A stretch of 64,000 nt of DNA from a plasmid. The notes under the pieces were generated by a model. That model did no database searches, had not been told where the DNA came from, and saw only the letters and a list, made by a program, of their open reading frames with translations. Every line of letters starts with the position of its first letter. Position 1 is the first letter of the stretch. Location of the stretch: sequence record NZ_CP072215.1; one strand, 5' to 3'. The position numbers and the translations under genes are program-made. Shown one piece after another: positions 4,235 through 50,453 of this stretch.

Positions 4235-4320
4235 TCTTTTGGGCGTTCCTGTGGGACGGTCGGGCTTTACGTTTCAAGTCCTCGCCTAAAGGCTGTGGGC
4301 TTTACTCTGCAATCCCTAAC
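4235..4320. repeat. GC-rich conserved element, copy 1 (copy 2 at 22395..22500)
   Basis: GGGCGTTCC...GGGCT..TTCAAGTCCTCG...CTGCAATCCCTAACGC shared with 22395..22500. Overlaps the 3' end of the LuxR-type gene. Confidence 0.5.
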
Positions 4321-5422: not shown

Positions 5423-5441
5423 AAATAACTGTTTTTTTTTT

Positions 5442-5458
5442 TTTTTTTGTATGTTTAA
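5442..5458. repeat. T17 homopolymer tract in the divergent intergenic region
   Basis: Uninterrupted run of 17 T (A17 on minus) about 20 bp upstream of the LuxR-type regulator start and ~225 bp upstream of the fimbrial-operon start. Confidence 0.9.
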
Positions 5459-5681
5459 GTACTTTTCTTTATGATGTTAAGTGTTTTTAATTGTTGTGTA
5501 AGCGTGATTGGCTGCTGTGGTAAGTGTTGTAGCTGTTGTGTGGTTGTCTTTTTAAGTATTTATAAGTTTAAAATACTTGTTTTTTGCTTTGGAGGTTGGT
5601 TTATAAGTGCATATCTTTAGCGGTTGAAATTCAGGGGGTGTAAAAGCCTGGGTTTGGATTGTCATATTAACAAATGATTAA

Positions 5682-7831: not shown

Positions 7832-7876
7832 TATGAGTTTATTAATTATATGTATCAATTTGATTTATTTTTATTT

Positions 7877-17608: not shown

Positions 17609-18556
17609 TTAGAACCCAACACCTCTCTTGCGCTTAACTTTCTTCCTTCTGCGAAGTATATCCACCATTTCCTGATTGGCTTCCGCATCAGCAGTGTTAT
17701 AAGATGAGCCACTGCTTTTTAGCAATCCCCAAGAGCCGTTGAACAACTCGCTTTGTGCCGTGCCGGACGGTGCGCTTGGTGTAGCCGTTTCATATATTCC
17801 GGCTGTTATTCCCATACGTTCCCTGCATCTGTTGTGCTGCAAAGCCGCGTCAATCTTGGAATAACTGAAACGCCTGTCCACTTTGGAGCCGTTGAAATGG
17901 TAGCCATTCATGGAGAATACAACACCCTGCACCTCGCTGGTCTGCCCCTTATGCTTGAAATGTACTTCCACTCCCTGCCGTTTCAGGTTGGCGATAAGCA
18001 CGTTCCAGTTGCCGCATCTGCCGACTTCCATTTTGATGATGTCGTAAAGCGCATATTTCGTCCTGTCTGGCTCTTTCAGGCGGTTGCGTTTGACATTGTC
18101 CTTTCCGCCAGCCATATGCAAGCCGTATTTCAAGGTCAATTCCTTGCAGATGCGGGTACTGCGCAGACGCTCGTGCCTGTCCGATATGGTATTGCCGTTG
18201 TTGTCTATGCGGTTGAAAGCAATATGCACGTGCGGATGCTCCTTGTCGAAATGCTGGGCGATGAAGAACTGCGTATTCTTGATTCCCATCCGTTCCATAT
18301 ATTCAAGCGCGATGCCTGCCATGATACGGTTCGTCAGCCGTAACTCATCCTCTTTGGAAAAACTCAACGCGATATGTCCGACAGGTTTTGTCACCTTATC
18401 GTTCATCCGTGACTGGGCATTGAAACTCATGGCGATAGTTTCCAGATTTTCCATAAACAAGCCTTCGCTTGCTACTATCTGCGTATCCTTCTTCTTGTCG
18501 ATGATGTAATCCACCGCACCCTTGAAGTCGCTTCCTTTTACGATTTTCGCCATCAT
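17609..18556 (-). CDS. mobB: relaxase/mobilization nuclease (MobA/VirD2 superfamily; Bacteroides MobB-like)
   Basis: Motif HPHVHIAFNRID (HxH) and N-terminal VGHIALSF block; 315 aa. Confidence 0.85.
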   Translation of the reverse strand: MMAKIVKGSDFKGAVDYIIDKKKDTQIVASEGLFMENLETIAMSFNAQSRMNDKVTKPVGHIALSFSKEDELRLTNRIMAGIALEYMERMGIKNTQFFIAQHFDKEHPHVHIAFNRIDNNGNTISDRHERLRSTRICKELTLKYGLHMAGGKDNVKRNRLKEPDRTKYALYDIIKMEVGRCGNWNVLIANLKRQGVEVHFKHKGQTSEVQGVVFSMNGYHFNGSKVDRRFSYSKIDAALQHNRCRERMGITAGIYETATPSAPSGTAQSELFNGSWGLLKSSGSSYNTADAEANQEMVDILRRRKKVKRKRGVGF

Positions 18557-22767: not shown

Positions 22768-23394
22768 ATGAAAACGAAGAGAACCGTATTTGAAGTGAAT
22801 GACGTTTATCGGGTGATGGAAAACAGCGAGTTGATTTATACCTTGACGAACAGTGAGAAACTGAAACGTGAAGAATATAAGTATGAACAGATGGAAATAG
22901 AAGGATTGTGCTTGTCTGATGTACTGGAAACACTAACACCCAGCCGTAAAAAAGTCGCTTATGCGGCGATTGAGCTATATAAACGGCTGAAAGAAGGGCA
23001 AGTTGAAAGTCCTGCGCTTTTATCCAGCAATAATGTTTATAAAATGATGCATCCTGTTTTGTGCGATATAGCTACTGAAGAGATGTGGGTGCTGTTGCTG
23101 AACAGTTCGTCCAAACTCATCCGTAAAGTCCGTATCTCATGCGGCGGGATAAATACCGCCCCTGTGGATATACGGGTTATCATGAAGCAGGCATTGTATT
23201 ATAACGCCGTATCTTTTATCATGGTACATAACCACCCATCAGGAGCACGCAAGCCCAGCAGTGCGGATGACCGCTTGACGGAAGCAGTTAAAAAAGCCGC
23301 TGAAACATTAGACATCCGTTTGGTTGACCATGTGATTGTGGCAGGCAATAACTATTATAGCTATGCGGACGAGGGAAGATTGCAAAATAGGTAA
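22768..23394 (+). CDS. radC: RadC-like JAB/MPN-domain protein
   Basis: HNHPSG motif and helix-hairpin-helix-like N region. ORF from 22699; likely start MKTKRT. Confidence 0.85.
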   Translation: MKTKRTVFEVNDVYRVMENSELIYTLTNSEKLKREEYKYEQMEIEGLCLSDVLETLTPSRKKVAYAAIELYKRLKEGQVESPALLSSNNVYKMMHPVLCDIATEEMWVLLLNSSSKLIRKVRISCGGINTAPVDIRVIMKQALYYNAVSFIMVHNHPSGARKPSSADDRLTEAVKKAAETLDIRLVDHVIVAGNNYYSYADEGRLQNR

Positions 23395-23437
23395 GGTGGA
23401 CGGGAGAAATCCCGTCTGCCCGGGATTTCGGCTTCGG

Positions 23438-23471
23438 GGTTCTTTTTTGGCAGTCACCCCAAAAAAGAACC
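23438..23471. terminator. 13-bp-arm perfect palindrome GGTTCTTTTTTGG-N7-CCAAAAAAGAACC (family with 32977..33009 and 44729..44761)
   Basis: Placed 44 bp after the radC-like stop. Same arms, different spacer, in the other two copies. Confidence 0.4.
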
Positions 23472-23561
23472 AAAAAAATGCTTCCCGGACTATCGGATGC
23501 GACATCGTAAAATACGCAAAGACGTGGCTTTTCAGAATAAATACATATCTTCGCGCCAAAG

Positions 23562-25824: not shown

Positions 25825-26677
25825 TCATAATACATCAATTATCGTATGGGCAGGAAGTTCCAGTTTGGAGAAAGCAAACATTTTCTTGCCCAAATCCTTT
25901 AGCGATGCCCCAATATGATATACTTCCGTATTATCAATGATTAAGAAGCGGTCATGACTACTTTTGTAGGTTCTAGCTTCAATGGGAGGATATTGGTCAT
26001 TGTGTTTGTTTAAATCAAGTTGGAGCTGTGCGTTTATTTTGTGTATAAATAGTAGCTGATACTCCACTGTTTCGTTTGCTCAACATGAGTAACACGGATT
26101 CATCTACATAGTTGTCGATAAGCACAAGTGAGCATTTGGCAGACTTTATTAAATCTGTAGCAAACTTATACGCATCGAATATCTGACCGTCAAAGAATAT
26201 ACCTTCCACCGGAGGCAATGAGGTGCGTACAAAGAAGTCTATCTTTGCATCATGTTCAGCAATGGTTTTCTCTATTTGGAAGAATCTATTGTTCATTCTA
26301 TATTCCATGTCATTGAGCCGTTGGTTTATAGAATAACCTTTCAATAAATATTCTTTTAAAATTTTATTTGCCCATTGCCTGAATTGCGTACCTCTTACGC
26401 TTTTAACTCTGTATCCAACTGAAATTATTACGTCTAGACTAAAGAACTTGACAGGCTTATCGGAATTAGCAATGTGCAAAAAATGCACATTGCTTTTCTC
26501 TTCCAATTCCTTTTCCTTAAAAACATTATTTATATGTTTGGTAATAACGGTTCTGTCACGTTGAAAAAGTTCTGCTATCTGCGCTTGTGTGAGCCAAACG
26601 GTTTCATCTTCTAAACGTACTTCCAACCTTACAGCTTCATCCGGTTGGTATAGTATGATTTCTCCTTGCTTCTCCAT
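25825..26677 (-). pseudogene. RhuM-family gene disrupted by a frameshift near 26015..26067
   Basis: ORFs 26015..26677 and 25825..26067 together align end-to-end with the intact 10842..11678 product (~75% aa identity). The frame changes after ATIYTQ. Confidence 0.75.
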
Positions 26678-29972: not shown

Positions 29973-30659
29973 TTTTGCGTTCACGCAGTATTCTTTCCCA
30001 CCCTCCCCTTCATCGGAATGACTGTTCTCATTTCCGGTTTACCCGTAGTCATCCGCTATGCGGCTGATTATGGGCAAACCAGAAAAGAGAAGTTCCAAAC
30101 GTGGGCGGGATTGCAATGGTCATCATCCGGAGCTTCGGCATTGCCGAAACAACCTCCTTCTTCCGTATTGCAGCCCCGTCCTTTTACCGTTTGTCCCGGC
30201 AGTCCGTTGCTAACCCGTTCCCCCCTGCCACTTGTGGCAGGGAGATAGGAATACGGTTTTGCAGGCAAAACCGTATGGCTTGTTTTACTTTCCGTACTGC
30301 CCTTTTCCTAGTTTTCTGCCTCCCTTAATGTGCGTTTTTCATAGCCCCATCTGAGACCCTTTGTTTTTGAACGGCAAATTTATTTCGGTGGATGGATACG
30401 AAAGAGTTCCGGTCTTCGCCCTTTGTCCCGAAAAAAATAACGCCGGACGGCTTCGCTGTCCCCAACATTTTTTGTCGTCCAAAACTTTTCTTAATCCCTC
30501 CTTCCTTATTGTTGTGTGCCGTAAAAAAAAGGCTCATAAACTCAGATGGGGCATGAAAGCTCAAAAAAAAAGTCGGCAGAAAGAAAAGGCCATCCCGGAA
30601 AGGGGTTTTAAAAAAAGGTCTTTAAATCTAGCTGAAGCATAAAATTAGAAGTTTAACAA
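29973..30659. repeat. repeat family A, copy 1: ~690-bp hairpin-rich non-coding element ending 20 bp before a gene start
   Basis: Near-identical to 33044..33711 and 42146..42833. Starts TTTGCGTTCACGCAGTATTCTTTCCCACCC, ends TCTAGCTGAAGCATAA(AATTAGAAGTTTAACAA). Confidence 0.85.
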
Positions 30660-32925: not shown

Positions 32926-32976
32926 AGCACATTCTCCCTTCTTTTGGATTAGGGAAGGGAGGGTATTTTGCTGTCC

Positions 32977-33009
32977 GCTACTTTTTGGCAAGCACCCCAA
33001 AAAAGTAGC
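32977..33009. terminator. palindrome GCTACTTTTTGG-N7-CCAAAAAAGTAGC (same family as 23438 and 44729)
   Basis: 52 bp after the cassette's last stop and 35 bp before A copy 2. Confidence 0.4.
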
Positions 33010-33043
33010 AAAAAACGCTTGGAGTTACTGGTAATCCCATTAA

Positions 33044-33711
33044 TTTGCGTTCACGCAGTATTCTTTCCCACCCTCCCCTTCATCGGAATGACTGTTCTCA
33101 TTCCCGGTTTACCCGTAATCATCCGCTATGCGGCTGATTATGGGTAAACCGGAAAAGAGAAGTTCCAAACGTGGGCGGGATTGCAATGGTCATCATCCGG
33201 AGCTTCGGCATTGCCGAAACAACCTCCTTCTTCCGTATTGCAGTCCCTTCCTTTTACCGTTTGTCCCGGCAGTCCGTTGCTAACCCGTTCCCCCCTGTCA
33301 CTTGTGGCAGGGAGATAGGAGTATGGTTTTGCTTGCAAAACCGTATGGCTTGTTTTACTTTCCGTACTGCCCTTTTCCTTGTTTTCTGCCTCCCCTAATG
33401 TGCTTTTTTCATAGCTCCATCTGAGAGCCTTTGTTTTTGAACGGCAAATTTATTTCGGTGGATGGATACGAAAGAGTTCCGGTCTTCGCCCTTTGTACCG
33501 AAAAAAATAACGCCGGACGGCTTCGCTGTCCCCAACATTTTTTGTCGTCCAAAACTTTTCTTAATCCCTCCTTCCTTATTGATGCGTGCCGTAAAAAAAA
33601 GGCTCATAAACTCAGATGGGGCATGAAAGCTCAAAAAAAAAGTCGGCAGAAAGAAAAGGCCATCCCGGAAAGGGGTTTAAAAAAAGGTCTTTAAATCTAG
33701 CTGAAGCATAA
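33044..33711. repeat. repeat family A, copy 2
   Basis: Near-identical to copy 1. Ends 26 bp before the ATG at 33737. Confidence 0.85.
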
Positions 33712-33736
33712 GTTTAATTTTAATAGATAAAAGACT

Positions 33737-34303
33737 ATGGCACATCAGAGTAAATATCCTAGTTTAGACAGACAATGGCATAAGATGATGTTTTCTTTCT
33801 TTGAGTATCTTCCTATGCAATATCGGCAGGCAACGGAAAGAGAATGGCAAATTCGTAAGATGATATGGAGTTTTAAGGATGGAAAAGCTTATTTGAATAT
33901 AGCTTGGATGATAGCGAATAAGTTACATCAAGTTTTTGGTGATGATGTTAAGAATATTGTTTTTGCTTGTGTTCCGGCTTCTTCCGCTGATAAGAATGAA
34001 CTTCGTTATAAGGGGTTTGCTTCGGCTGTGTGTAAGTTTTCAGGTGCTATCAATGCGTATGAACATATACGTGTCAGTGGAGATCGTTTGGCTATTCACG
34101 AGAAATTTGACAGCAAGTCGCTTCAAAAAGTACAAGTGATAGAATTTGACAAGGACTTTTTTCGGGGTAAGAAAATCTTGGTATTTGACGATATTTTAAC
34201 AAAAGGGTTTTCGTATGCTCGTTTCGCATGTCAGTTGGAAAAAATAGGAGGTGAGGTTTTGGGAGGTTTCTTTTTAGGTAAAACAGTTGTCCGTATGTTA
34301 TAA
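33737..34303 (+). CDS. ComF/GntX-family phosphoribosyltransferase-domain protein (no zinc-finger)
   Basis: PRTase signature KKILVFDDILTKGFSYARFA, preceded by VPASSADKNELRYKGFAS as in the ComFC core. 188 aa; 17-nt overlap with the next gene. Confidence 0.65.
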   Translation: MAHQSKYPSLDRQWHKMMFSFFEYLPMQYRQATEREWQIRKMIWSFKDGKAYLNIAWMIANKLHQVFGDDVKNIVFACVPASSADKNELRYKGFASAVCKFSGAINAYEHIRVSGDRLAIHEKFDSKSLQKVQVIEFDKDFFRGKKILVFDDILTKGFSYARFACQLEKIGGEVLGGFFLGKTVVRML

Positions 34304-34919
34304 GATGAAAGAAAAAGAGAGTTATATAGAGAAGCAGAAGGATATCTTTGGAGATACTACTTGGTTCACTTATCGTTATGAGGTGAATGGAATGGTGTAT
34401 GAAACTTCGGCAGGTTCGTTGGATATATGTAGAAAGGCACGTGATAAATGGATGAAAATGATGTCCGTTGCTTTTACCGGTCATAGAACGATACGAACAA
34501 ATAAATATGCTTTGTCCGTATCGTTGAATGAAGAGGTACGTTTCTGCTATGAGAATGGAATCCGTTTTTTCTATATTGGTTGTGCGGTTGGATTTGACAT
34601 GATGGCTGCTCATACCGTACTTGAACAAAGGAAACAATATCCCGATATGGTTTTGGTGGCGGTTGTTCCTTATGTCGGGCAAGATGTGTATTTCAACAAA
34701 GAGGACAAACAGAGGTATGCTGATATTTTGCGCCAAGCCGACAAGGTGGTAGTTCTATCCGAATATTATTATGCCCAATGCTATGCCCACCGTAATGATT
34801 ACATGATTTCACACGCCTGTAGGCTGATTGCCTATTGGGATGGAAAATCTGCCGGAGGAACTTCTTATACGTTTAACAAGGCACAAAAAAAGAAATTGGT
34901 GATATACAATCTGTTTTGA
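34287..34919 (+). CDS. YpsA-like SLOG-superfamily protein (DUF1273)
   Basis: AFTGHRT N-motif, GCAVGFDMMAAHTVLEQRKQYPD, and C-terminal LIAYWDGKSAGGTSYT align block-for-block with B. subtilis YpsA. Confidence 0.7.
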   Translation: MSVCYKMKEKESYIEKQKDIFGDTTWFTYRYEVNGMVYETSAGSLDICRKARDKWMKMMSVAFTGHRTIRTNKYALSVSLNEEVRFCYENGIRFFYIGCAVGFDMMAAHTVLEQRKQYPDMVLVAVVPYVGQDVYFNKEDKQRYADILRQADKVVVLSEYYYAQCYAHRNDYMISHACRLIAYWDGKSAGGTSYTFNKAQKKKLVIYNLF

Positions 34920-35054: not shown

Positions 35055-36418
35055 TTTTACTTAATTGTTTTACCTTTGTAAAACATTAGTGTCCCATTAA
35101 AATTGGGACGAATTAAAAATTAAATAAACTTGGCCCATTTGGTCCGAATCGTTCTTTGTCATTTTGAAATTTAGTTTTATCAAAGAGGTCTCTCAGATGA
35201 GTCTTATCAGTCAATGAGATGCTCAGTATTTGTAACACTTCATATGTACTTCTGTTCAGTTGCATATCGTGTTGAATGATTGCCACCAAACAGTAAGCGC
35301 ATATAGCAGCATATATCTGTATTCGAACAGCATTCTCTGTAGTTCCCCAAAATCTTTTGATTTTAAGGTGCTGCTTGAGCCATTTGAAAAACAGCTCTAC
35401 CTGCCAGCGATTTTTATAAAGTTCAGCAACTTGAAGCGCAGATATATGCATCGCATTGGTTATGAATGTAAATTCTCGTTCTTGTTCTTCATCCCAATAT
35501 TTAACCAATCTAAGTGGCTCTGGATAATATTGTTTAGGATAGAATCCTGTCAGAAATACACTTGCGTCTGAAAGCACATTCTTAGGCAGCCTACGTTTCC
35601 ATTGGATGGATTTGTACCCGAGATTCTTTTTTGCTCTGACAACAAAGTAGGCTTCAATTTGATGAATTTTATACAGTATTTTGAAGTTGTTATAACCGCG
35701 GTCAAAGATGTAATAAGAGCTTGGTTCATAAGGAATTTCAATCATAACTTTAGAATCGTGTACGGATGCTTCCGTGATATGAAAGAATGCAGGAATCTGT
35801 GTTTCCACATCATATAATGTATGCACTTTGATACCACCTTTCTTTTTGCGGAATTTTGCCCACCAAAAGACTGAAAGGCACAGGTCAATAGTAGTCGAAT
35901 CGAAAGCATAAACGTTACCGCCAAGTTTGAAAATATGATTAGCACACTTTTGTCGTGCTTCGCTAACCAGGTAGTAAGCATATTCTTCAAAGATGTGATA
36001 GTCTCTATCTTGATTTGCTCTTGCCAGCGATGACTTTGATACATTTTTACCCATTCCTAAATGATAACATTTGGAATGATGAGCTTCAAGAGCAACTATC
36101 AAATCTCGCAGACTTTCACGATTAGAAAGTTGACCAAACATCAAAGCAAGTAGTTGATTCCAGCAGGTGAAGTGCTTCACATATTTATCACCATCATACT
36201 TGGTGACTATGCGGTTAAACTTACTTCGATTCAGAAATGAAGCCAATTGAGCGAAAACGTATTTGTCTTGGAACATATGCCATCGGATTAATCTGATGCA
36301 AAGCTACAAATTCAAGTCCGTTCGCTCGGAAAATCGCTGTAACTAACTAAATTTCAAATATTTCAAAGAACTCTTTTAGATTTTAATGGGACAACAATGT
36401 TTGTAAAAGGTAAAACAA
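35055..36418. mobile_element. IS4-family insertion sequence (~1.36 kb) with ~38-bp imperfect terminal inverted repeats
   Basis: Left end TTGTTTTACCTTTGTAAAACATT-AGTGTCCCATTAAAAT; right end is its reverse complement with 3 mismatches. Single transposase ORF inside. Confidence 0.7.
35113..36276 (-). CDS. IS4-family DDE transposase
   Basis: 387 aa. Conserved C-terminal YKNRWQVELFFKWLKQHLKIK block. Confidence 0.85.
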   Translation of the reverse strand: MFQDKYVFAQLASFLNRSKFNRIVTKYDGDKYVKHFTCWNQLLALMFGQLSNRESLRDLIVALEAHHSKCYHLGMGKNVSKSSLARANQDRDYHIFEEYAYYLVSEARQKCANHIFKLGGNVYAFDSTTIDLCLSVFWWAKFRKKKGGIKVHTLYDVETQIPAFFHITEASVHDSKVMIEIPYEPSSYYIFDRGYNNFKILYKIHQIEAYFVVRAKKNLGYKSIQWKRRLPKNVLSDASVFLTGFYPKQYYPEPLRLVKYWDEEQEREFTFITNAMHISALQVAELYKNRWQVELFFKWLKQHLKIKRFWGTTENAVRIQIYAAICAYCLVAIIQHDMQLNRSTYEVLQILSISLTDKTHLRDLFDKTKFQNDKERFGPNGPSLFNF

Positions 36419-36712
36419 TATGCGTTTTTCAGATACAGAGAACAATATGACCTTTTGCATAGGTGTGTGTTGGTTAGGAACTCCAAATATGGAGTCGTTG
36501 CAGAAAATAATGATGAACTTGAATATTATTGATAAGGATGGAAACAATGGAAGCTAATGAACTGATGCGATATGCCTATGAATTACTGCAAGGGCATTCG
36601 AATGAAGAATGTGCCCGAATATTAAGAGAAGTGGTGGCCGAGTGTCAGGTGTGTATAAAGAACTGTGAAGAAGGTGTTTTCGAAAATATGCTAAAGTAAT
36701 AACAACAAGAAT

Positions 36713-37162
36713 ATGGAAATTACTCATAAAAATCAAGGAGAACTTGACTCAACCATGCTCCCATTCGTGATGAGAGAGCTGGTAGAACTGGTCATGAAGA
36801 AAAAGGCATTGCCTTTAGGCGATGCACTGTATTATATATATTCTTCCAAGTTGTATAAATCTTTGCTGGATAAGAGTACCAAGTTATGGTATTCAAGTAC
36901 ATTGTCGCTTTATGAAACATTGGAGAAGGAAAAAACAGAAGAAAAACGACGGTATAACGGTGACACGAAGATCCTGCTTTTCAAGATGTTCTGCATTGAG
37001 AATTATAGGGAGGAAAAGAAACAAAGTGCGGAAGAAACCTTGTTGTTGTTTTCGGACTATGGGGTTTTTGATTTTTTGGATGAGACTTTTGAAATGCTTC
37101 ATACCCAAGACCCCGAATATATATTAGATACTATAACGACTTATATCAATAAAAGAAAATGA
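36713..37162 (+). CDS. DUF3791-like protein
   Basis: 149-aa ORF. 4-nt overlap with the downstream gene, the known DUF3791/DUF3990 pairing. Confidence 0.45.
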   Translation: MEITHKNQGELDSTMLPFVMRELVELVMKKKALPLGDALYYIYSSKLYKSLLDKSTKLWYSSTLSLYETLEKEKTEEKRRYNGDTKILLFKMFCIENYREEKKQSAEETLLLFSDYGVFDFLDETFEMLHTQDPEYILDTITTYINKRK

Positions 37163-37641
37163 GACTATTTCATGGATCTACAGTTACCGTGAAACGCCCT
37201 AATATACAGAAAGGACGGAAGGCTACGGACTTTGGGAAGGGATTTTATACGACAACCAACTTTGAACAAGCAAAAAAATGGGCTTTGTTGAAGAAGAACA
37301 GGGAACAGAGCGAAAAAGCAATCGTCTCTGTTTATGAAGTTCCCGATGATATTCTTGATAGGGAATATCCGGTTCTTCGGTTTATGGGTGCAACAAAAGA
37401 ATGGCTGGAGTTTGTTGTCAACAACCGCAGAGGAAGAGAAAACGGTGACTATGACCTAATAATGGGGCCTGTCGCAAATGACCAGTTATATGCGACAATT
37501 CGGCTTTATGAACAGAGAGTTGTTACGGCTGAAGCCGCTATTGAGATGCTGAAAGCGCATAAGTTGTTCAATCAGCTTTCATTTCATACGGTAACAGTCG
37601 CTTTGTTGTTGAAGTTTGTTGAATCAATTGAAGTGGGGTAA
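37159..37641 (+). CDS. DUF3990-like protein
   Basis: MRLFHGSTVTVKRPNIQKGRKATDFGKGFYTT N-terminus typical of DUF3990. Confidence 0.5.
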   Translation: MRLFHGSTVTVKRPNIQKGRKATDFGKGFYTTTNFEQAKKWALLKKNREQSEKAIVSVYEVPDDILDREYPVLRFMGATKEWLEFVVNNRRGRENGDYDLIMGPVANDQLYATIRLYEQRVVTAEAAIEMLKAHKLFNQLSFHTVTVALLLKFVESIEVG

Positions 37642-37694: not shown

Positions 37695-38905
37695 TTTTTG
37701 CGTCCACTTAGTTTTTTCCCACCCACCCTTTCAGCGGAGTGACTGCCCGGCAGTCTGTTGCTTACCCATATGTCCTAGCCTTTTAGGGCTGTAGATAGGT
37801 AGTTGGATATTTCGCTGCCAAATCGGCAGTCCGCTTCAATCGTTTGCTTGCTTTTCTCCGAGTGGAGCCTTTCTGCTTTTCCGGTGGTGTAATCTTCTTT
37901 TATTGGAAACAGGTGTAGTGGCTGTATGCCTGTGTGGTTATGTTCTCCCGCAGAATCCGCAAGTCAGTTCTTCCGTTGCAGCTTTTCATTTTATCGTGCA
38001 GTCACTTTTTTCGATACGTGGAATATGATATGCTTCATTCTTCGGCTTCATTTTTTTAAAAGGAATTGCAGATGTTTCTTCCGGTGTGTCGATAGGCGGC
38101 TGACCATCTTTTCGGGATGTGCCATGCTTGCTGTCTAACCGGTTGTTTTTTGCATCCTTTCCAAACCTGTTACTGATTTTCAAGTTTTGTCTTTTTCATA
38201 TCATTTTTTAGGGAAGTCAAATCATTTTCCGTTGCAAATATAGATTGTTGCTAACCCCTTTTACGGGGATAAGGGGACGATTCACAAACACCACGTTGTT
38301 ATTCGTCTGAAATCTTCCTTTTTTTGCCTTGCACAAAAAGCGTATTTAACCCGAATTATTCGTTGCCATCTTCACCAATAAAAAAGTTACAAATCTTCCT
38401 TTTTCCGGCCAGCATAAAAAGAGTATTTATATCTTTTTTCATGGTGTCCCCCAAAGCCAACAATCAGTTATTGCACTGTAAAATTGATTAATTAACTTCT
38501 AAAAAATCAGAGATATGAAAAAGATTGAAAATTCATTCGCAGTAACAGGCAGGATTTGTAGGGATGCAGAAATCCATTTATTCGAAATAGTAAAGGTTGC
38601 ACACTTCTCTATTGTGGTCAGTCGCATAGGCAAGATAAATGAAGAAAAAACATTTGTTTCCTCTGTTATGAAAGTTGAAGCCTAGAGTAAGATGGAAGAC
38701 CGCTATGCTTTTTGGATACTGCAAAAAGATGTACTGATTACCGTTGAAGGCTACTTTAAGCCGGAAGAATGGACGGATTCTAAAAGTGGGGAGAAACGTA
38801 ACCGCATTGTGATGGTAGCTACTAAGTTCTACCCGACTCCGGAAAAATAAGAACCCCCGGACTAAAAAGAAAAAGCAATCAAACGATTGAAGCGGCACAA
38901 GGTCG
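37695..38905. repeat. segmental duplication, copy 1: family-B structured element + ssb-leader region + decayed ssb (deletion variant)
   Basis: Near-identical to 40735..42105 apart from an internal ~120-bp deletion and the decayed ssb. Confidence 0.75.
38520..38852 (+). pseudogene. ssb-like gene copy with in-frame stop and multiple substitutions
   Basis: Aligns with 41699..42097 but carries a TAG (GAAGCCTAGAGT) and divergent codons. Not present as an ORF in the track. Confidence 0.6.
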
Positions 38906-39019: not shown

Positions 39020-39358
39020 ATGAAAAGATTATATGATACATATACAATATACGAATTTTCAGATGAATGTATTGTAAAGGAAATCTGCAAGAGAGTTAAG
39101 TCTATAAGACTTAGCTGCTGTTTTTCCCAGCAAGAATTTGCGGATAAGGCAGGAGTATCTATCGTTACTATTAAGAGAATAGAATCTTGTAAAGTAAGTG
39201 ATATTGCCCTAAGTACATTGCTTAAGATTTTGCGTATAAGTGGAACTCTTGAAGGCGTTGTCGGTTTGGTTCCGGAACTTCCAGACTCCCCTTTCCTAAT
39301 CAATGAAAAAACAGGTAAAAGAATACAAAGAATTAACGGTAAACGTAAGATGGTATGA
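39020..39358 (+). CDS. hipB: HipB-like XRE-family HTH protein
   Basis: FSQQEFADKAGVSIVTIKRIESCK HTH. 4-nt overlap with the hipA-like gene. Confidence 0.6.
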   Translation: MKRLYDTYTIYEFSDECIVKEICKRVKSIRLSCCFSQQEFADKAGVSIVTIKRIESCKVSDIALSTLLKILRISGTLEGVVGLVPELPDSPFLINEKTGKRIQRINGKRKMV

Positions 39359-40632
39359 AGAAAGAGCCGATTATAGTGAATGTATATCTGTGGGGGACTT
39401 GCATTGGCAAATTGAATTGGGACTTTGAAAAGCATTGTTCTGTATTCCAATTTACGGATGAATATAGGAAACAAGATTATGATATATGCCCTTCCACACA
39501 CCCTAAGAGAACCCCTTTGTTTGCGTCTTTCTATGGGAATAAAGATAAATTATATCAAGGGCTTCCGGAATTTCTTGCAGATGCGCTTCCTGACAAATGG
39601 GGGGCTTCCCTATTTGACCAATGGCTCACGGATAATAATATAAAGGTTACGGAATCATTGCCTCTATTGAAGCTCTCTTATATTGGCAAGAGGGCTATGG
39701 GAGCATTGGAATTTGAACCGGAATTTAATGATGATGCCATCCATGAGTCAGTAAATATGTCATCATTGGCAACTTTGGCTTCTAAAATATATAATGATCG
39801 AGATGCTGCTGTCATATCACCGGAGGATAGCCTCACGATGAAAAAGTTGATATATCTTGGAACTTCTGCCGGTGGCATGCGCCCGAAGGCAGTGATTGCC
39901 TATAATCTCGAAACGGAAGAGTTTCGTTCCGGCCAGGTGGATTTGCCTGAAAATTTTAAGCAGTATATCATCAAATTTAAAGAAGCAGATGACTCTCCTA
40001 CCACAGAGATAGAAATGGTATATAGCGAAATGGCAAAGGCGGCGGGAATCAACATGATGCCATGCTTCCTGAAAGAAATTGATGGAAGAAATCATTTCGT
40101 AACGGAAAGATTTGATCGTAAGAATGGAGAAAAGCTCTTTAGTCAGACCCTTGCGGCCATTATGCCGGGTGCAGATGATTATATGAAGCTGTGTTGGATA
40201 GCAGAGACTCTGAAACTTCCCCAGGAAGACAAAGATCAGATATTTATCAGAATGGTATTTAATTATGTCGCAGGTATATCCGATGATCATAATAAGAACA
40301 TATCGTTTATCATGGATAAGGCAGGGGTATGGCGTTTATCACCTGCATATGATGTAATGTTCACGGCAAATACATGGGAAAATTCTTCAGCACACATTCA
40401 TTCGATGGGCGTGATGGGCAAAAGGTCTGCCTTGACTACAAGTGATTTCGTCAACTTTGCCGAGGATTTTGTAGAGGAGCCCGAAAAGAAGATATTACAG
40501 GTGTTCGATGCTGTAAGCAAATTTCAATCGTTATGCGCCACGTATGGCATAGATAAGGCTATATTTGATAAAATCCAACATGTATTGGATGGATTGGTCA
40601 CTGATGATTTGGATTTGCTGCAATTAACTTAA
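39355..40632 (+). CDS. hipA: HipA-family kinase toxin (second copy, canonical length)
   Basis: 425 aa. Catalytic loop ISDDHNKNISFIMD and TERFDRKNGEKL motif. ~40% identical to 382..1971. Confidence 0.8.
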   Translation: MKKEPIIVNVYLWGTCIGKLNWDFEKHCSVFQFTDEYRKQDYDICPSTHPKRTPLFASFYGNKDKLYQGLPEFLADALPDKWGASLFDQWLTDNNIKVTESLPLLKLSYIGKRAMGALEFEPEFNDDAIHESVNMSSLATLASKIYNDRDAAVISPEDSLTMKKLIYLGTSAGGMRPKAVIAYNLETEEFRSGQVDLPENFKQYIIKFKEADDSPTTEIEMVYSEMAKAAGINMMPCFLKEIDGRNHFVTERFDRKNGEKLFSQTLAAIMPGADDYMKLCWIAETLKLPQEDKDQIFIRMVFNYVAGISDDHNKNISFIMDKAGVWRLSPAYDVMFTANTWENSSAHIHSMGVMGKRSALTTSDFVNFAEDFVEEPEKKILQVFDAVSKFQSLCATYGIDKAIFDKIQHVLDGLVTDDLDLLQLT

Positions 40633-40734: not shown

Positions 40735-42105
40735 TTTCCCACCCACCCTTTCAGCGGAGTGACTGTCCCCGTTTCAGGATTTCTCATAGTCACTCGCAGG
40801 CTCCGTGATTGTGTGAAATCCAGGAATGGGGAAGGCAAAGGAGAGAGGCATATCCGGTCTGCTTTCGGAGCTTCGGCCACATCGAGACAACCTCTTTCCG
40901 GCGGCTATGCCACTCTCCTTTTATTTGCCCGGCAGTCTGTTGCTTACCCATATGCCCCAGCCTTTTAGGGCTGTATATAGGTAGTCGGATATTTCGCCGC
41001 TAAATCGGCAGTCCGCTTCAATCGTTTGCTTGCTTTTCTCCGAGTGGATGCCTTTCTGTTTTTCCGGTTGTATAATCTTCTTTTTCCGGAAACAGTTGTA
41101 GTGGCTGTATGCCTGTATGGTTATGTTCTCCCCGCAGAATCCGCAAGTCTGTTCTTCCGTTGCAGCCTTTCATTTTATCGTGCAGTCACTTTTTTCGATA
41201 CGTGGAATATTGTATGCTTCATTCTTCGGCTTCATTTTTTTAAAAGGAATTGCAGAGGTTTCTTCCGGTGTGTCGATAGGCGGCTGACCATATTTTCGGA
41301 ATGTGCCATGCTTGCTGTCTGACCGGTTGTTTTTTGCATCCTTTCCAAACCTGTTGCTGATTTTCAAGTTTTGTCTTTTTCATATCATTTTTTAGGGAAG
41401 TCAAATCATTTTCCGTTGCAAATATAGATTGTTGCTAACCCCTTTTACGGGGATAAGGGGACGATTCACAAACACCACGTTGTTATTCGTCTGAAATCTT
41501 CCTTTTTTTGCCTTGCATAAAAAGCGTATTTAACCCGAATTATTTGCTGCCATCTTCACCAATAAAAAAGTTACAAATCTTCCTTTTTCCGGCCAGCATA
41601 AAAAGAGTATTTATATCTTTTTTCATGGTGTCCCCCAAAGCCAACAATCAGTTATTGCACTGTAAAATTGATTAATTAACTTCTAAAAAATCAGAGATAT
41701 GAAAAAGATTGAAAATTCATTCGCAGTAACAGGTTTTATCGGTAAGGATGCAGAAATCCGTAGTTTTGAAACAGCAAGCGTAGCACGCTTTTCTATCGCG
41801 GTCAGCCGTGCAGACAAGACAGGTGAAGAAACCTCTTATGTTTCCGCTTTCATGGGGATTGAAGCCTGGAGAAAGAATGAAGCACTGGATTCCTTCGATG
41901 TATTGAAAAAAGGTGAGCTGATAACCGTTGAAGGCTACTTTAAGCCGGAAGAATGGACGGATTCTAAAAGTGGGGAGAAGCGTAACCGCATTGTGATGGT
42001 AGCCACCAAGTTTTATCCGGCTCCGGAAAAAGAAGAAGAAAAACCGGATCAGCCTAAACAGAAGGCTGTCTCTAAAAAGAAAAAAGCAAGCAAATGATTG
42101 AAGCG
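40735..42105. repeat. segmental duplication, copy 2: family-B element (full length) + leader + intact ssb
   Basis: See 37695..38905. Its family-B element retains a segment homologous to family A (GGAGCTTCGGCCACATCGAGACAACCTC). Confidence 0.75.
41699..42097 (+). CDS. ssb: single-stranded DNA-binding protein (OB-fold, conjugative-element type)
   Basis: FAVTGFIGKDAEIRSF...ARFSIAVSR...WRK...GELITVEGYFKPEEWTDSKSGEKRNRIV pattern and acidic/K-rich tail. Confidence 0.7.
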   Translation: MKKIENSFAVTGFIGKDAEIRSFETASVARFSIAVSRADKTGEETSYVSAFMGIEAWRKNEALDSFDVLKKGELITVEGYFKPEEWTDSKSGEKRNRIVMVATKFYPAPEKEEEKPDQPKQKAVSKKKKASK

Positions 42106-42145: not shown

Positions 42146-42833
42146 TTTGCGTTCACGCAGTATTCTTCCCCACCCTCCCCTTCATCGGAATGACTGTTCT
42201 CATTCCCGGTTTGCCCGTAGTCATCCGCTATGCGGCTGATTATGGGCAAACCAGAAAAGAGAAGTTCCAAACGTGGGCGGGATTGCAATGGTCATCATCC
42301 GGAGCTTCGGCATTGCCGAAACAACCTCCTTCTTCCGTATTGCAGTTCCTTCCTTTTACCGTTTGTCCCGGCAGTCCGTTGCTAACCCGTTCCCCCCCTG
42401 TCACTTGTGGCAGGGAGATAGGAATACGGTTTTGCAAGCAAAACCGTATGGTTTGTTTTACTTTCCGTACTGCCCTTTTCCTTGTTTTCTGCCTCCCCTA
42501 ATGTGCTTTTTTCATAGCTCCATCTGAGATCCTTTGTTTTTGAACGGCAAATTTATTTCGGTGGATGGATACGAAAGAGTTCCGGTCTTCGCCCCTTTGT
42601 CCCGAAAAAAATAACGCCGGACGGCTTCGCTGTCCCCAACATTTTTTGTCGTCCAAAACTTTTCTTAATCCCTCCTTCCTTATTGTTGTGTGCCGTAAAA
42701 AAAAGGCTCATAAACTCAGATGGGGCATGAAAGCTCAAAAAAAAAGTCGGCAGAAAGAAAAGGCCATCCCGGAAAGGGGTTTTAAAAAAAGGTCTTTAAA
42801 TCTAGCTGAAGCATAAAATTAGAAGTTTAACAA
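42146..42833. repeat. repeat family A, copy 3
   Basis: Near-identical to copies 1 and 2. Ends 19 bp before the ATG at 42852. Confidence 0.85.
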
Positions 42834-44706: not shown

Positions 44707-44761
44707 CCCACACATCTAAATGTGTGGGAGTTCTTTTTTGGAAGACGCCCAAAAAAGAACC
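44707..44761. terminator. tandem hairpins: CCCACACA-TCTAAA-TGTGTGGG, then palindrome GTTCTTTTTTGG-N7-CCAAAAAAGAAC
   Basis: Begins 8 bp after the PcfJ-like stop. Second hairpin is the third copy of the 13-bp-arm palindrome family. Confidence 0.5.
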
Positions 44762-44798
44762 CCAAAAAACGTTGTCGCTACACATCGTTACGCTCGGA

Positions 44799-46940: not shown

Positions 46941-48887
46941 TTATCGGATGATTTTTTGTTCTGTCTTGTGTGTCCCGGTTGGCGGAACTGCTGACTTTTC
47001 TTTTAATTTGTCCTCTATCTTTTTGAGGATGGCGTTGACATCTTCAATGATTTTGATGTAGTTCTGCTGGATAATCTCTTCCAGGATTTCCAGTTCCATC
47101 TCTTCTTTGCCGTTGCCCAGTTTGACCGGTAAGGAGAAACGGGGTATCTCCTTCTCTTCAAAACGGCACATATCCATCTGCACGCTGAAGAATGGCGGCT
47201 TGCCTCCGGCAATCTTGCCAATGAAGTGTCCGGCTGCTTGTCCGGCAATGTCCCTTGCCTTTAAGACTTTTTCTTTTTGCAGGCTCTCCGTGACACTGTT
47301 ATTGCCACCGGCTTGGTGTGAATAAGATTCTTGCGCTTCTTTCTTCTCCCCAAGCAAGTTCTCGATGTCTTTGGCGGTCTTCTCATTTCCGGTCATACCG
47401 TAAGCCTGCGTTCCGCAGGAGGCTTTCAGGATGTTGGCACTTTTCTCTCCATAGTCCCTGACCGCTTGGTTGAAGTCCTGAACGGCGAGAATGGTAGCGA
47501 CATTGTGCTTCCGGGCGGTTCCGATGAAAGTGTCAATGCCTTGCAACAGGATGGTCGGAAATTCATCTACCATGAATATGCTGGTCGCTTTGCCGGGATT
47601 GTTCATCTGTGACATCAAGACGCTGCCGATGCAGGAAATAGCAGGGGAAACGGCTTCCTTGATGGTGGGCGCATTGCCTACGCATAACAGCGTTGGGTGT
47701 TCCTTGTTGGTTATATCCAAAGAGAACTCTTCTTCGGGAAGTGGCGACAACACCCAGAAGATGTATTTGTTGTTCAGGAGTACCAACGGAGTCTGTGCGG
47801 ATGATACGGCTCCGGCTGTCTGCTGTTGTGCACCCAGTTTCCAGGCGGTCAGCATGGAGGACATGTTCAATGCGATTTCAGGATCTTCCGACAGCCAGTG
47901 GAATACTAGGTTGCTGTCAGAAAGGGCAAGGGCTATCACATGGGGCAGCGTACAGATACCAAGCTTCCTTTCCTTGAAACATTTATAGGCGATTGAATAG
48001 ACGTAGTTGATGGCATTGTTGGCCCAAAAGTCGGTCTTTTCCTTCCAGCTTGCTTCCAGATTCTTCATCAGTGTCATGATGATATTGCGGATGAATAGCG
48101 ATTCGTTTCCCTTTGACATGTATTGCGGAGAAAGTACGTTCACCCTGACCGTGCGTGACATATCCACAAAGTTGATATAGGCGAAACGGGGTGTTTCCAT
48201 CCCCTTGTTCCGGAAATGTTCGATGCTTCCGTATGCGATACGTGAGAGGATGGGTGACTTGTCCTTGGTGGGATCACCCTCCCAATCGTACACGAATCCG
48301 GCATAGTTGCGCTCGGCGCACTGGTAGATGATTCCCTTGATCCAGCTCTCTGATTTACCGCTTCCCGGACCGCCGTCGATATAGACATTCTGCTGCGGCT
48401 TATGGATGACCAGCGGCCCGGAGGCGGTTTCAAAGCGGAAGTAGAAAGCCGATTCTTCCCGGCTTAACCCGAAAATGCTATCATCGGATTGGGCATGACG
48501 CCGGATGAAATAAGGCAGAGTCTTGATGACAAGCAGCGTGTACGCTACGAATAGAATGGGAAATACAAATAGGTTATACCACGCTGATAACCGGCTGAAT
48601 CCGACAACCAGCATGGATGCCGTAACCAGTGTCATACTGGTGTAAACCCATTTCTTGTTTTCGTCTTTCACTTTGCCAACCGGAAAGAGAAAAGCGAGGC
48701 CTCCGATCAGGATAACGTAGAGAAACCGGAATAGGATATCCTTCTCCATCAGCCTTTCCCACATGGCCGGATTACGTAGTGGAGCGTATAATCCCGTAAC
48801 GATAGCCCACTGAAACAGTACGGCTGTCCCGATGAGCGTGGATAGCAGGATCAGGATGAATGACAGGTCTTTCTTCTCTCTTTCCAT
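46941..48887 (-). CDS. type IV coupling protein (TraG/TraD/VirD4 family)
   Basis: N-terminal TM helices and Walker A IDGGPGSGKSES; 648 aa. Confidence 0.85.
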   Translation of the reverse strand: MEREKKDLSFILILLSTLIGTAVLFQWAIVTGLYAPLRNPAMWERLMEKDILFRFLYVILIGGLAFLFPVGKVKDENKKWVYTSMTLVTASMLVVGFSRLSAWYNLFVFPILFVAYTLLVIKTLPYFIRRHAQSDDSIFGLSREESAFYFRFETASGPLVIHKPQQNVYIDGGPGSGKSESWIKGIIYQCAERNYAGFVYDWEGDPTKDKSPILSRIAYGSIEHFRNKGMETPRFAYINFVDMSRTVRVNVLSPQYMSKGNESLFIRNIIMTLMKNLEASWKEKTDFWANNAINYVYSIAYKCFKERKLGICTLPHVIALALSDSNLVFHWLSEDPEIALNMSSMLTAWKLGAQQQTAGAVSSAQTPLVLLNNKYIFWVLSPLPEEEFSLDITNKEHPTLLCVGNAPTIKEAVSPAISCIGSVLMSQMNNPGKATSIFMVDEFPTILLQGIDTFIGTARKHNVATILAVQDFNQAVRDYGEKSANILKASCGTQAYGMTGNEKTAKDIENLLGEKKEAQESYSHQAGGNNSVTESLQKEKVLKARDIAGQAAGHFIGKIAGGKPPFFSVQMDMCRFEEKEIPRFSLPVKLGNGKEEMELEILEEIIQQNYIKIIEDVNAILKKIEDKLKEKSAVPPTGTHKTEQKIIR

Positions 48888-49259: not shown

Positions 49260-50453
49260 TTATAATCCGAGCTGTGGCTCATTCATATTTTTCATGGCTG
49301 GCTCCGCTTCCATGGAAGGCAGCGAAATGCCGAAAGTGCTGTGTAGCGTTTCAAGGTTGTCGGCTGTAGGATGGTTTGCCGCAACACTTTCCAATAACCG
49401 TGATGAAGGGGTAAAACCTTCGTTTTTCATCTGCTCCAATACCGGACGGTTGTCTTGCAGGACGGCCTGCGTGAACCGTTCCTCCGGTGTGAGGTACTGT
49501 TCCATCCGTGCGGTATGTTCCTGAATCATATTGCTGGCTTTTCCTACATCGGCAAGGATGTTGTAGATGAATTTGGGATCTTCTTTCAAGGCTCCCAGCC
49601 AGTTTTTTAGATACATGGCATTTTCTTCCCGGATATGGGTGGATATTCCCAGGCTTTGCCCGACGGTAGCGGAGGTGAGTTCGGCAACCAGTTCCTCTTT
49701 GGCATATTGCTTGTCTCCGAAAATCACGCCTTTTTCCCGGTTCAGATGCTCAGGTTCTCCAGTCGAGTGCGCCATCTCATGCAGTAGTGTGGAGTAGAAA
49801 TTCTCTCCGTCCTTAAACTGCCCCTTCAGGGGTACGACGATATGGTTATCTTCTCCCCTTGCATGGTAAGCACTATTTCCTTCCTTGGAATAAATGGGGC
49901 AGATCCATTGCTGTTCCCGTACCATCGCATCAATCAGAGGCACGGTGAGCATCCCTTGCTCGTCCTTGATGGCCGGTATCTTGAATTGCTCCTTCAATGC
50001 TTCCCATTTCTCCGGTTTCGTTTCCTGAAGATTGGTCTGCTGTACGTTGAACACATTGTATGTCTTCAGAAACGGCGTGACCTTATATTCCTGCTGCTCG
50101 TTTTTATCCAGGTTCTTATATACGTCGAAAGGTATTTTCTTTCCGTTCTTGTCTCTTACTGAGAAATTCCAGTAAATGACTGGGAATGACTTTTCTCCTT
50201 TCAGTATGTTAAGGCCGTTGTCTTTGGCTTGCATGAAGGTCATATAGACCGGCAGGCTGTACTGCTCTTTTTCCGAAAGTAGAAACAACATGAAGGAATT
50301 TACTCCGTTGTAGGTTCTTCCCTCGATATTTTGCGGAAGTCCCCCACCCTTTATCCCGAACCAAGGCTTTTGCCAGTTGTCTTCCACCTGCTTTATCTTT
50401 TCGATCATCAGTTCGGCGAAACGCTGTAATGCTTTATCACTTGCTGTATCCAT
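49260..50453 (-). CDS. ardC: ArdC-like antirestriction protein (DUF1738 ssDNA-binding N-domain + zincin HExxH domain)
   Basis: WQKPWFGIKGGGLPQNIEGRTYNGVNSFML N-domain and LLHEMAHSTG metalloprotease motif. Confidence 0.8.
   Translation of the reverse strand: MDTASDKALQRFAELMIEKIKQVEDNWQKPWFGIKGGGLPQNIEGRTYNGVNSFMLFLLSEKEQYSLPVYMTFMQAKDNGLNILKGEKSFPVIYWNFSVRDKNGKKIPFDVYKNLDKNEQQEYKVTPFLKTYNVFNVQQTNLQETKPEKWEALKEQFKIPAIKDEQGMLTVPLIDAMVREQQWICPIYSKEGNSAYHARGEDNHIVVPLKGQFKDGENFYSTLLHEMAHSTGEPEHLNREKGVIFGDKQYAKEELVAELTSATVGQSLGISTHIREENAMYLKNWLGALKEDPKFIYNILADVGKASNMIQEHTARMEQYLTPEERFTQAVLQDNRPVLEQMKNEGFTPSSRLLESVAANHPTADNLETLHSTFGISLPSMEAEPAMKNMNEPQLGL

Follow-up and report, generated by a model that had tools for sequence, protein, structure and literature searches.

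The stretch of plasmid DNA analysed here, 64,000 nucleotides (nt) of sequence record NZ_CP072215.1 (hereafter the window), carries two small adjacent genes transcribed in the same direction, ORF1 and ORF2 (open reading frames 1 and 2), which encode a phosphoribosyltransferase (PRTase) and a SLOG-superfamily protein of the YpsA clade, respectively. The two genes lie side by side on a conjugative plasmid of the Bacteroidales, belong to a module that is conserved on related mobile DNA and possibly constitute a minimal relative of the ShosTA toxin–antitoxin (TA) system. The cassette consists of the following features:

33737..34303, + strand: PRTase gene (ORF1), 188 amino acids (aa), a single-domain type-I PRTase of the ComF/ShosT-like clade; RefSeq WP_005868760.1 'phosphoribosyltransferase'
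34004..34006, + strand: invariant Arg90, in the segment after the second core strand (P80...R90..F94)
34169..34216, + strand: phosphoribosyl pyrophosphate (PRPP)-binding loop K145-Y160, KKILVFDDILTKGFSY, with the acidic pair D151-D152 at 34187-34192
34301..34307, + strand: gene junction TAA-G-ATG, that is, the PRTase stop codon (34301-34303), one spacer base and the likely SLOG start codon
34305..34919, + strand: SLOG gene (ORF2), 204 aa from the ATG, YpsA/DUF1273 clade; RefSeq WP_005868759.1 'SLOG family protein'

A divergent type-I phosphoribosyltransferase

The PRPP-loop pattern, a hydrophobic strand followed by two acidic residues and hydrophobic-T-x-G-x-(T/S), is present in ORF1 as ILVFDDILTKGFS (residues 147-159), inside the PRTase fingerprint at residues 145-160 that the original prediction had picked out. 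In an alignment of 43 homologues, D151, D152 and G157 never vary and conservation at T155 is 90% or more; in sequence comparisons the loop lines up with the PRPP loops of OPRT, HGPRT, APRT and ShosT. Arg90 is invariant in the same alignment and would correspond to the conserved arginine after strand 2 that is common to invasive-element PRTases and ComFC (Iyer et al. 2017). The Pfam model PF00156 remains below threshold on ORF1 (15.2 bits versus a gathering cut-off of 26.3, E=0.014); however, precomputed matches to this model are present in several members of the family, and it is therefore the sensitivity of the model that fails and not the fold. When the profile of the 43-member family is compared with the sequences in the PDB, every match is a PRTase and falls on the PRPP loop, so that the possibility of a spurious motif, raised at the outset, does not hold; with ORF1 as a single sequence, all PDB matches are PRTases except two to sorting nexin-25 (E ~0.17). 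All 50 of the 50 Foldseek matches listed for the AlphaFold model (mean predicted local distance difference test score, pLDDT, 89.6) are PRTases, with ComF as the best fold match. The PRT core fold is present and the domain resembles ComF structurally. ORF1 is a genuine but divergent type-I PRTase, with phosphoribosyl transfer from PRPP as its predicted activity.

The only cysteines of ORF1 are C78, C99 and C165 and no CxxC pair is formed; therefore the protein has no zinc finger, as was noted before. An NCBIfam scan (E<=10) returns pyrE, HGPRT and APRT models only, all far below their cut-offs, and no ComF-named model. The 'ComFC-core block' that had been ascribed to ORF1 consequently stands for the fold and the shared Arg-containing loop but not for the family models, and the description 'ComF-like without a zinc finger' is right at this level only. 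Filing ORF1 as ComFC was rejected, the zinc finger, the ComF model match and a competence-gene context all being absent.

The SLOG gene and the gene junction

ORF2 consists of a YpsA/DUF1273 core (about residues 53-204) and a 52-aa N-terminal beta-beta-beta-alpha extension. It is matched by Pfam PF06908 with 73.5 bits (gathering threshold 27.7, E=2.7e-20) and by Bacillus subtilis YpsA (2NX2) in a phmmer comparison (E=4.3e-10). The motifs T58-G59-H60-R61, G96-F97-D98 and G184-G185-T186 are all present, as predicted, and in the homologue alignment R61 and D98 are invariant, with 90% conservation or more at T58, G59, H60, G96 and F97. Among the structural matches of the predicted structure (pLDDT 94.0), YpsA is the best and ShosA the second, with DprA also right behind YpsA. 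ORF2 is a YpsA-clade SLOG protein, and the analogy with ComFC and DprA drawn in the original prediction is structurally sound for both proteins. None of the catalytic residues of LOG-type hydrolases is assignable in ORF2. No gpsB gene lies beside it and the PRTase gene precedes it instead, as in the PRTase-coupled branch of the YpsA family described in the gene-neighbourhood passages of PMC6459960.

The longest form of ORF2 begins at TTG 34287 and gives the 17-nt overlap with ORF1 reported earlier. As the start codon we prefer the ATG at 34305, which a single base separates from the PRTase stop codon, because RefSeq uses this 204-aa form on an essentially identical plasmid, because a homologue with 51% identity (P0136) starts MK... 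at the aligned position and because the 'stop + 1-2 nt + ATG' junction recurs in many diverged PRTase-YpsA loci. The TTG start was rejected on this basis and the overlap is probably a longest-ORF artefact. ORF1 and ORF2 are probably tightly juxtaposed without overlapping, and with 1 nt between them translational coupling is still plausible.

Conservation and exchange of the partner gene

The PRTase family is restricted to mobile DNA of the Bacteroidales (plasmids, integrated conjugative elements (ICEs) and prophage-like regions); a few matches in metagenome-assembled genomes are labelled as other taxa and lie on short contigs. Plasmids of 70-111 kb from species of Bacteroides, Phocaeicola and Parabacteroides encode identical PRTase proteins. 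Across 79 genome loci, the gene that follows the PRTase gene codes for YpsA in 37, for RadC/JAB (PF04002) in 32, for RadC and then YpsA in 2 and for neither in 8, although in three of these eight the contig leaves no room for a partner. The partner (YpsA and/or RadC) begins 0-50 nt past the PRTase gene in 71 of the 79 loci, and the same three forms recur in metagenome loci. The 'pair' of the original prediction hence holds where YpsA follows the PRTase, but it is one form of a modular set in which RadC is about as frequent and both partners are sometimes present. In a neighbour-joining tree the YpsA clade of the window is nested within the RadC clade, with RadC+YpsA intermediates, and at least two partner changes are needed; it is therefore the PRTase that stays constant, with its partner as the modular part. 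The YpsA form occurs in conjugative elements near Toprim, type IV coupling protein (T4CP), ArdC and TraN/M genes, and the RadC form in prophage-like regions with ClpP/S49 proteases and large unannotated operons that look structural, with HicA and AbiH close by. No description of PRTase-RadC coupling was found in the literature searched.

The RadC form is seen in L091-L094 (metagenome contigs) and, among the genome loci, in L018, L020, L022-L042 and others. That one partner does not exclude the other is shown by the three-gene PRTase-RadC-YpsA form of L001-L005 (6001-7885) and L014/L015 (8001-9826); the YpsA protein of L001 has a weak N-terminal match to DUF3873. In L077 (8812-9369) and L078 (8822-9370), which belong to the most divergent PRTase clade (~41% identity), the PRTase gene is followed by an ORF of ~185 aa that may be a third type of partner; this ORF has no hhalign relation to YpsA and no Pfam or PDB match.

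These data bear on one explanation of the locus, namely that an ordinary nucleotide-salvage or housekeeping pair has come to lie on the plasmid by chance, or that the two genes are neighbours without a functional link. Some database records do name homologues of ORF1 'ribose-phosphate pyrophosphokinase' or 'amidophosphoribosyltransferase'. However, no salvage PRTase model comes near its cut-off (best NCBIfam score 16.8 bits versus 150), family members occur on Bacteroidales mobile elements only, and the two genes remain adjacent, with a 1-2-nt junction, over identities from 100% to ~45%. PRTase-YpsA is also listed as a conserved coupling in the neighbourhood passages of PMC6459960. Ubiquity in housekeeping surroundings, which would have spoken against the original prediction, is not what the neighbourhood survey finds, since it places the pair on mobile elements. 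We consider a chance or salvage origin extremely improbable, and a housekeeping salvage role is effectively excluded.

A further explanation is suggested by the associated genes: the proteins could form a kit for handling single-stranded DNA (ssDNA) that resembles the cytosolic late-competence proteins, in which the PRTase would take the incoming strand and hand it to the SLOG protein, acting together with RadC and a single-stranded DNA-binding protein (SSB). YpsA, RadC or the two together accompany the PRTase. In 29 of 80 genome loci there is a same-strand SSB gene upstream, often at a distance of ~1.4 kb, and both proteins of the window are basic, with predicted isoelectric points of 9.45 (ORF1) and 8.92 (ORF2). 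No DNA binding is known for YpsA proteins, which counts against such a kit, as does the occurrence of the PRTase-RadC form in prophage-like regions, where DNA enters double-stranded. ComFC, in turn, binds ssDNA and interacts with DprA (PMC9005727), and comFC, dprA and radC all belong to the pneumococcal late-competence regulon (PMC6560143). However, the zinc finger that ComFC requires for uptake (PMC9005727) is missing from ORF1, and no ComF-named family model matches it. The ORF1 family profile moreover finds only 1,662 relatives among 1.84 billion representative sequences; if ComFC is as widespread as we assume, canonical ComFC would be largely beyond its reach. We regard a role in ssDNA handling as doubtful, and it is just as doubtful that the incoming strand would be protected, or RecA loading or second-strand synthesis promoted, in the recipient.

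Both genes have frameshifted variants among near-identical, metagenome-derived sequences. Independent single-base frameshifts at short homopolymers in the PRTase variants P0048, P0083, P0114 and P0116 (T4, G4 and T5 runs) truncate the protein before the PRPP loop, and similar frameshifts in the SLOG variants P0129, P0130, P0133 and P0135 truncate it before the GGT loop. A single cluster of frameshifted PRTases comprises 103 sequences. They could reflect real recurrent inactivation or assembly error. The idea that they signal selective inactivation of a toxin was dropped, since both genes are hit alike and assembly error is possible.

Relation to ShosTA and a tentative toxin–antitoxin reading

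ShosT is the sole defence model of PADLOC that matches ORF1 (E=1.2e-10, profile positions 74-212 of 237). This model matches all 43 members of the PRTase family (best 4.7e-15), and the PsyrT model, over its C-terminal PRTase part, matches 24 of the 43; the comparison of ORF1 with the E. coli ShosT sequence itself is marginal (E=0.16). Many of the 1,662 profile relatives are C-terminal domains of 400-1060-aa proteins, and all four long relatives that were looked up sit in DprA(PF02481)-HAD-PRTase operons, one of them beside an MmeI-type restriction-modification (RM) system and with three PRTase paralogues. These operons, which look like split or expanded ShosTA systems, contain the nearest PRTase sequence relatives outside the family itself (E 1e-39 to 1e-67 with the family profile). 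In ten long relatives the N-terminal regions are unmatched by Pfam and no MuF or polyvalent-protein domain is detected, and a phmmer search of the PDB with two of them returns no ShosT. DprA-HAD-PRTase loci are found, in metagenomes, in L096 (2614-6519), L097/L098 (5085-13014), L099-L101 and L102 (6470-11183), and their PRTase proteins have N-terminal regions of 400-800 aa that Pfam does not match. In L097/L098 three PRTase paralogues stand in a row, with an MmeI-type RM enzyme, an ExoVII-L-like gene and a PLD/SNF2 helicase as neighbours, and in L102 DprA and HAD are fused.

Experiments have characterised ShosTA as a type-IV TA system with anti-phage activity (PMC11961720, PMC12961424). ShosT, in which a HAD-like pyrophosphatase (PPase) is joined to a PRTase, binds PRPP, upsets purine metabolism and makes cells filament, and ShosA, composed of SAM and DprA domains, binds ssDNA and RecA and neutralises ShosT without contact (PMC11961720, PMC12961424). 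The D331A/D332A exchange abolishes the toxicity of ShosT (PMC11961720), and these residues correspond to D151/D152 of ORF1. No acceptor substrate has been identified for either ShosT or ComFC (PMC11961720, PMC9005727).

Hence, we tentatively favour the reading that ORF1 and ORF2 are a minimal ShosTA-like (type-IV-style) TA or abortive-infection (Abi) module, probably one co-transcribed and probably co-translated cassette; we hold this to be quite possible, if still somewhat short of an even chance. It is suggested by the PADLOC match to ShosT, the relatives in DprA-HAD-PRTase operons, the invariant DD pair, the tight and conserved coupling of the genes, the TA/Abi genes nearby and the recurrence of PRTase and SLOG as toxin and antitoxin in ShosTA and RqlHI. 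The genes are small, adjacent and co-directional, with an adjacency conserved on mobile DNA, as is generally expected of a TA pair, and TA/Abi genes are frequent near the PRTase gene (MazEF and HipBA on the plasmid of the window; AbiEii, HicA and AbiH at other loci). The PRTase would be a growth-arresting effector that uses or sequesters PRPP and thereby disturbs nucleotide metabolism and DNA replication. The SLOG protein would serve as neutraliser or sensor, which need not contact the toxin and could either bind or hydrolyse a nucleotide product or act on ssDNA/RecA. Loss of the supply or function of the partner would unleash the PRTase; possible triggers are plasmid loss, a shut-off of host expression and foreign ssDNA of a phage or rival element. 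The benefit might be that the plasmid is maintained and/or that phages and rival elements are kept out. What was observed are the folds and motifs, the homology, the conserved synteny, the location on a mobile element and the TA/Abi neighbours; from these we infer toxicity, neutralisation, trigger and benefit.

Several observations weigh against a ShosTA-like module. ShosT (424 aa) carries an N-terminal HAD-like PPase domain, whereas the 188 aa of ORF1 comprise the PRTase only and no HAD gene is adjacent, the flanks being a non-coding repeat and the SLOG gene. ShosA is a SAM + DprA protein (PF02481), whereas ORF2 is of the YpsA clade (PF06908), has a small beta-rich N-terminal extension and no SAM domain, and is not matched by the PADLOC ShosA model. 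The PRTase-first order is the reverse of that in the DprA-HAD-PRTase operons. The replacement or accompaniment of YpsA by RadC is odd for a dedicated antitoxin, and in L077, L078 and L086 an intact PRTase gene is followed by neither. The neighbouring SSB, methylase, HU, ArdC-N and PcfJ/K genes are 'establishment' genes, and polyvalent proteins of the invasion phase are known to contain PRTase and RadC domains (Iyer et al. 2017).

The plasmid, the cassette run and its structured repeats

The window is a pMMCAT-type Bacteroidales conjugative plasmid. The surroundings of the gene pair include the following features:

4316-9013: Mfa-type fimbrial locus and LuxR-type regulator
13325-14200: radical-SAM gene (at least one in the window)
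17609-18556, - strand: relaxase gene
22768-23394, + strand: RadC/JAB gene
29974-30659, 33044-33729 and 42146-42833: three non-coding copies of the family-A repeat (~690 nt), ~97% identical mutually
32974..33016, + strand: terminator-like hairpin of repeat family D9, which closes the preceding cassette (LPD28, N6-methylase, orf117)
35064..36419, - strand: IS4-family insertion sequence (IS) with 40-nt inverted repeats and a DDE_Tnp_1 + DUF4372 transposase
46941-48887: T4CP gene
49260-50453: ArdC-N/MPTase gene

Positions 21737-46300 are 99.97% identical to plasmid p1 of Bacteroides cellulosilyticus PL2022 (NZ_CP102939.1, 72.5 kb), on which RefSeq already names both genes of the pair, and the likeness probably extends over the whole window. 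The Mfa-type fimbriae, the LuxR-type regulator, the radical-SAM gene and several TA pairs agree with the published description of pMMCAT, a family reported among the most widely shared mobile elements of human gut Bacteroidales. Conjugation genes for a relaxase, a T4CP, ArdC-N/MPTase, TraN, TraM and VirB4/TraG are present in the window, and the claim that a conserved two-gene module is carried by a conjugative element is borne out. In PLSDB, plasmids like PL2022 p1 are typed by MOB-suite as 'non-mobilizable' despite their full set of relaxase, T4CP and type IV secretion system genes.

Between the relaxase gene and the convergent transfer genes lies a run of ~25 kb of small cassettes, mostly on the + strand, in the order RadC/JAB, MazEF, HU, LPD28 with an orphan N6-methylase, PRTase-SLOG and the IS4-family insertion, followed by DUF3791-DUF3990, SSB, HipBA, a second SSB and PcfK-PcfJ. 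The IS begins ~145 nt past the SLOG stop codon; it lies outside the module and at present bounds the cassette on the 3' side. A 95%-identical locus (L013) lacks the IS at the matching site and continues with the HipB/HipA cassette instead. Hairpins of family D9, with a GC stem and a T-rich stretch, are found at 23436-23478, 32974-33016 and 44727-44769, where they end three + strand cassettes (after RadC, orf117 and PcfJ) and look like a shared cassette-delimiting terminator.

Copy 2 of the family-A repeat (33044..33729, + strand) stops 7 nt short of the PRTase ATG and presumably serves the cassette as promoter or leader. The three copies precede unrelated cassettes headed by LPD28, PRTase and PcfK, with gaps from 7 nt (PRTase) to ~200 nt (PcfK). 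The copy tested has very strong ssDNA folding on both strands (z about -10), and the 3' half is 75-78% conserved directly upstream of PRTase or other cassettes in related plasmids and ICEs (L016, L019, L021, L050, L095). Rfam searches of the whole window at gathering thresholds give no match for the family-A leaders or for the family-B leaders described below. The strict Bacteroides promoter pattern (TTTG-N17-23-TAnnTTTG) is uninformative, with 5 matches versus 2.85 expected and none in the A elements. The family-A repeats could be long structured leaders or promoters, or analogues of ssDNA promoters or ssi sites.

Further observations concern other parts of the window. The family-B repeat is a duplication of ~1.1 kb with 91% identity (37744-38853 and 40926-42037) that comprises a non-coding leader and an SSB gene, so that two SSB paralogues (38515-38850 and 41699-42097) each stand behind the same leader. 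The DUF3791 (36713-37162) and DUF3990 (37159-37641) genes overlap by 4 nt (ATGA) and form another compact two-gene cassette. Two genes code for HipA-family kinase toxins (382-1971, - strand; 39355-40632, + strand), the latter with a HipB-like helix-turn-helix gene at 39020-39358. Two RhuM-family genes (10842-11678, + strand; 26015-26677, - strand) form imperfect inverted repeats (10848-11461 versus 26040-26668, 72-75% complementary) ~15 kb apart, between which lie the radical-SAM gene, an AraC regulator, the relaxase gene and RadC.

The cassette run also bears on the role put forward in the original prediction, that of an anti-defence or establishment enzyme pair, which would act early in a new host by making, sequestering or destroying a nucleotide-type molecule and so blunt the defences of the recipient; targets might be, for example, a cyclic ADP-ribose (cADPR)-like or other ribosyl-nucleotide immune signal or PRPP-derived metabolites. 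PRTases (base + PRPP to nucleoside monophosphate) and LOG-type SLOG proteins (nucleoside monophosphate to base + ribose-5-phosphate) are chemically reciprocal. The run lies on the non-relaxase side of the relaxase gene and matches the composition of leading-region anti-defence islands, TA genes included (PMC11541004), and its cassettes are led by long structured repeats. Invasive-element PRTases and RadC are among the polyvalent-protein domains used at DNA entry (Iyer et al. 2017), and viral YpsA-like SLOG proteins are predicted to degrade cADPR-type signals (PMC9503650). However, the nearest relatives of the PRTase belong to the ShosTA-like, defence-type DprA-HAD-PRTase operons and not to polyvalent proteins, the catalytic residues of LOG-type hydrolases are not assignable in the SLOG protein, and the leading-region survey (PMC11541004) mentions no PRTase, RadC, ComF, DprA or YpsA. 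Beyond the relaxase gene, the attempt to place the leading region yielded no oriT, nick site or transferred strand, and we claim neither a leading-region placement nor an established early expression; the + orientation of the cassettes would be opposite to that which the F-plasmid rule predicts from the relaxase gene on the - strand. An anti-defence role thus appears unlikely, though not remote, and it gives way as the leading reading to the ShosTA-like module, because the nearest characterised PRTase + SLOG systems, ShosTA and PsyrTA/RqlHI, are TA/anti-phage systems. Gene context cannot separate these hypotheses, because leading-region islands also hold TA systems, SSBs and methylases (PMC11541004).

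The structured leaders also lend themselves to an extended form of the ssDNA-handling proposal. The PRTase, RadC and the YpsA-type SLOG protein, usually with an SSB nearby, would be a mobile copy of the late-competence set (ComFC, RadC, DprA, SsbB), an 'incoming-DNA reception kit' expressed in the recipient from these leaders. We think this rather improbable; if it were true, a conserved pathway of ssDNA hand-off would be common to conjugation and transformation, and ShosTA and PsyrTA would be host-side derivatives that monitor it. For the ShosTA-like module and its alternatives alike, stabilisation or invasion factors of pMMCAT plasmids matter since they affect gene flow in the gut microbiome, and if the pair were an establishment factor rather than a TA module, it would represent a new class in the anti-defence repertoire of conjugative elements.

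Comparison with known systems

The original prediction knew of no characterisation of the pair in conjugative elements. The ShosTA/PsyrTA architecture is known, however, and both the coupling (PMC6459960) and the annotation of the two genes had been recorded before; the RadC alternative is unremarked in the literature searched, and the window pair is an unusually compact PRTase + SLOG variant. The coupling of PRTase and YpsA genes in one branch of the YpsA family is noted in the neighbourhood passages of Brzozowski et al. (2019, Front Microbiol; PMC6459960), which draw on an analysis by Burroughs and Aravind. The window pair fits this description, but those passages report the gene neighbourhood alone, give neither function nor host range nor mobile-element context, and do not mention the RadC alternative, the three-gene form or the link to ShosTA. 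The literature search returned no paper tying DUF1273 to conjugation. B. subtilis YpsA, a cell-division inhibitor if overproduced, belongs to a Firmicute clade that is syntenic with gpsB, whereas the SLOG protein of the window is plasmid-borne, coupled to a PRTase and extended by an additional N-terminal domain.

With ComFC and DprA the window pair shares the conserved PRPP loop, the functional pairing of a PRTase with a SLOG protein and RadC and SSB as further associates. The differences are that the PRTase genes are plasmid- and phage-borne, that the window PRTase has neither the 4-Cys zinc finger nor a match to a ComF-named model, and that its partner is of the YpsA clade and not DprA; no com genes (comFA, comEC) lie near the pair. 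The solo PRTases with a ComFC-like conserved arginine from phage and conjugative contexts, called 'enigmatic' by Iyer et al. (2017), resemble ORF1, and RadC is typical of the polyvalent proteins of conjugative elements according to the same authors. LPD28 and an MPTase-ArdC-N protein are encoded in the window as well, but the window PRTase is a stand-alone gene and no MuF or polyvalent domains are detected in the long relatives examined.

The closest parallels are systems that join a same-clade PRTase with a SLOG protein. In PsyrTA/RqlHI, a RecQ-like helicase-PRTase fusion is paired with a DprA-like protein, whereas the window pair has no helicase domain and its partner is YpsA. The DprA-HAD-PRTase operons (L096-L102) show the same PRTase + SLOG pairing, but there the PRTase forms the C-terminal domain of proteins of 600-1060 aa, the partner is DprA, a HAD hydrolase occurs in every case, the genes stand in the opposite order and the surroundings are chromosomal or of the defence-island type. 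ShosTA of E. coli APEC O1 (PDB 8ZVA-8ZVD, 9W2P/Q) likewise consists of two genes, for a same-clade PRTase and a SLOG-superfamily partner, and resides in a chromosomal defence island, whereas the window pair is carried by a Bacteroidales conjugative plasmid. With its 188-aa PRTase, its 204-aa partner and the RadC variants, the module would be tractable for studies of PRTase products and ligands, of counteraction or cooperation by the SLOG protein and of RadC function. Alongside ComFC-DprA, RqlH-RqlI and ShosT-ShosA, the window pair is the smallest version of the PRTase + SLOG partnership seen so far.

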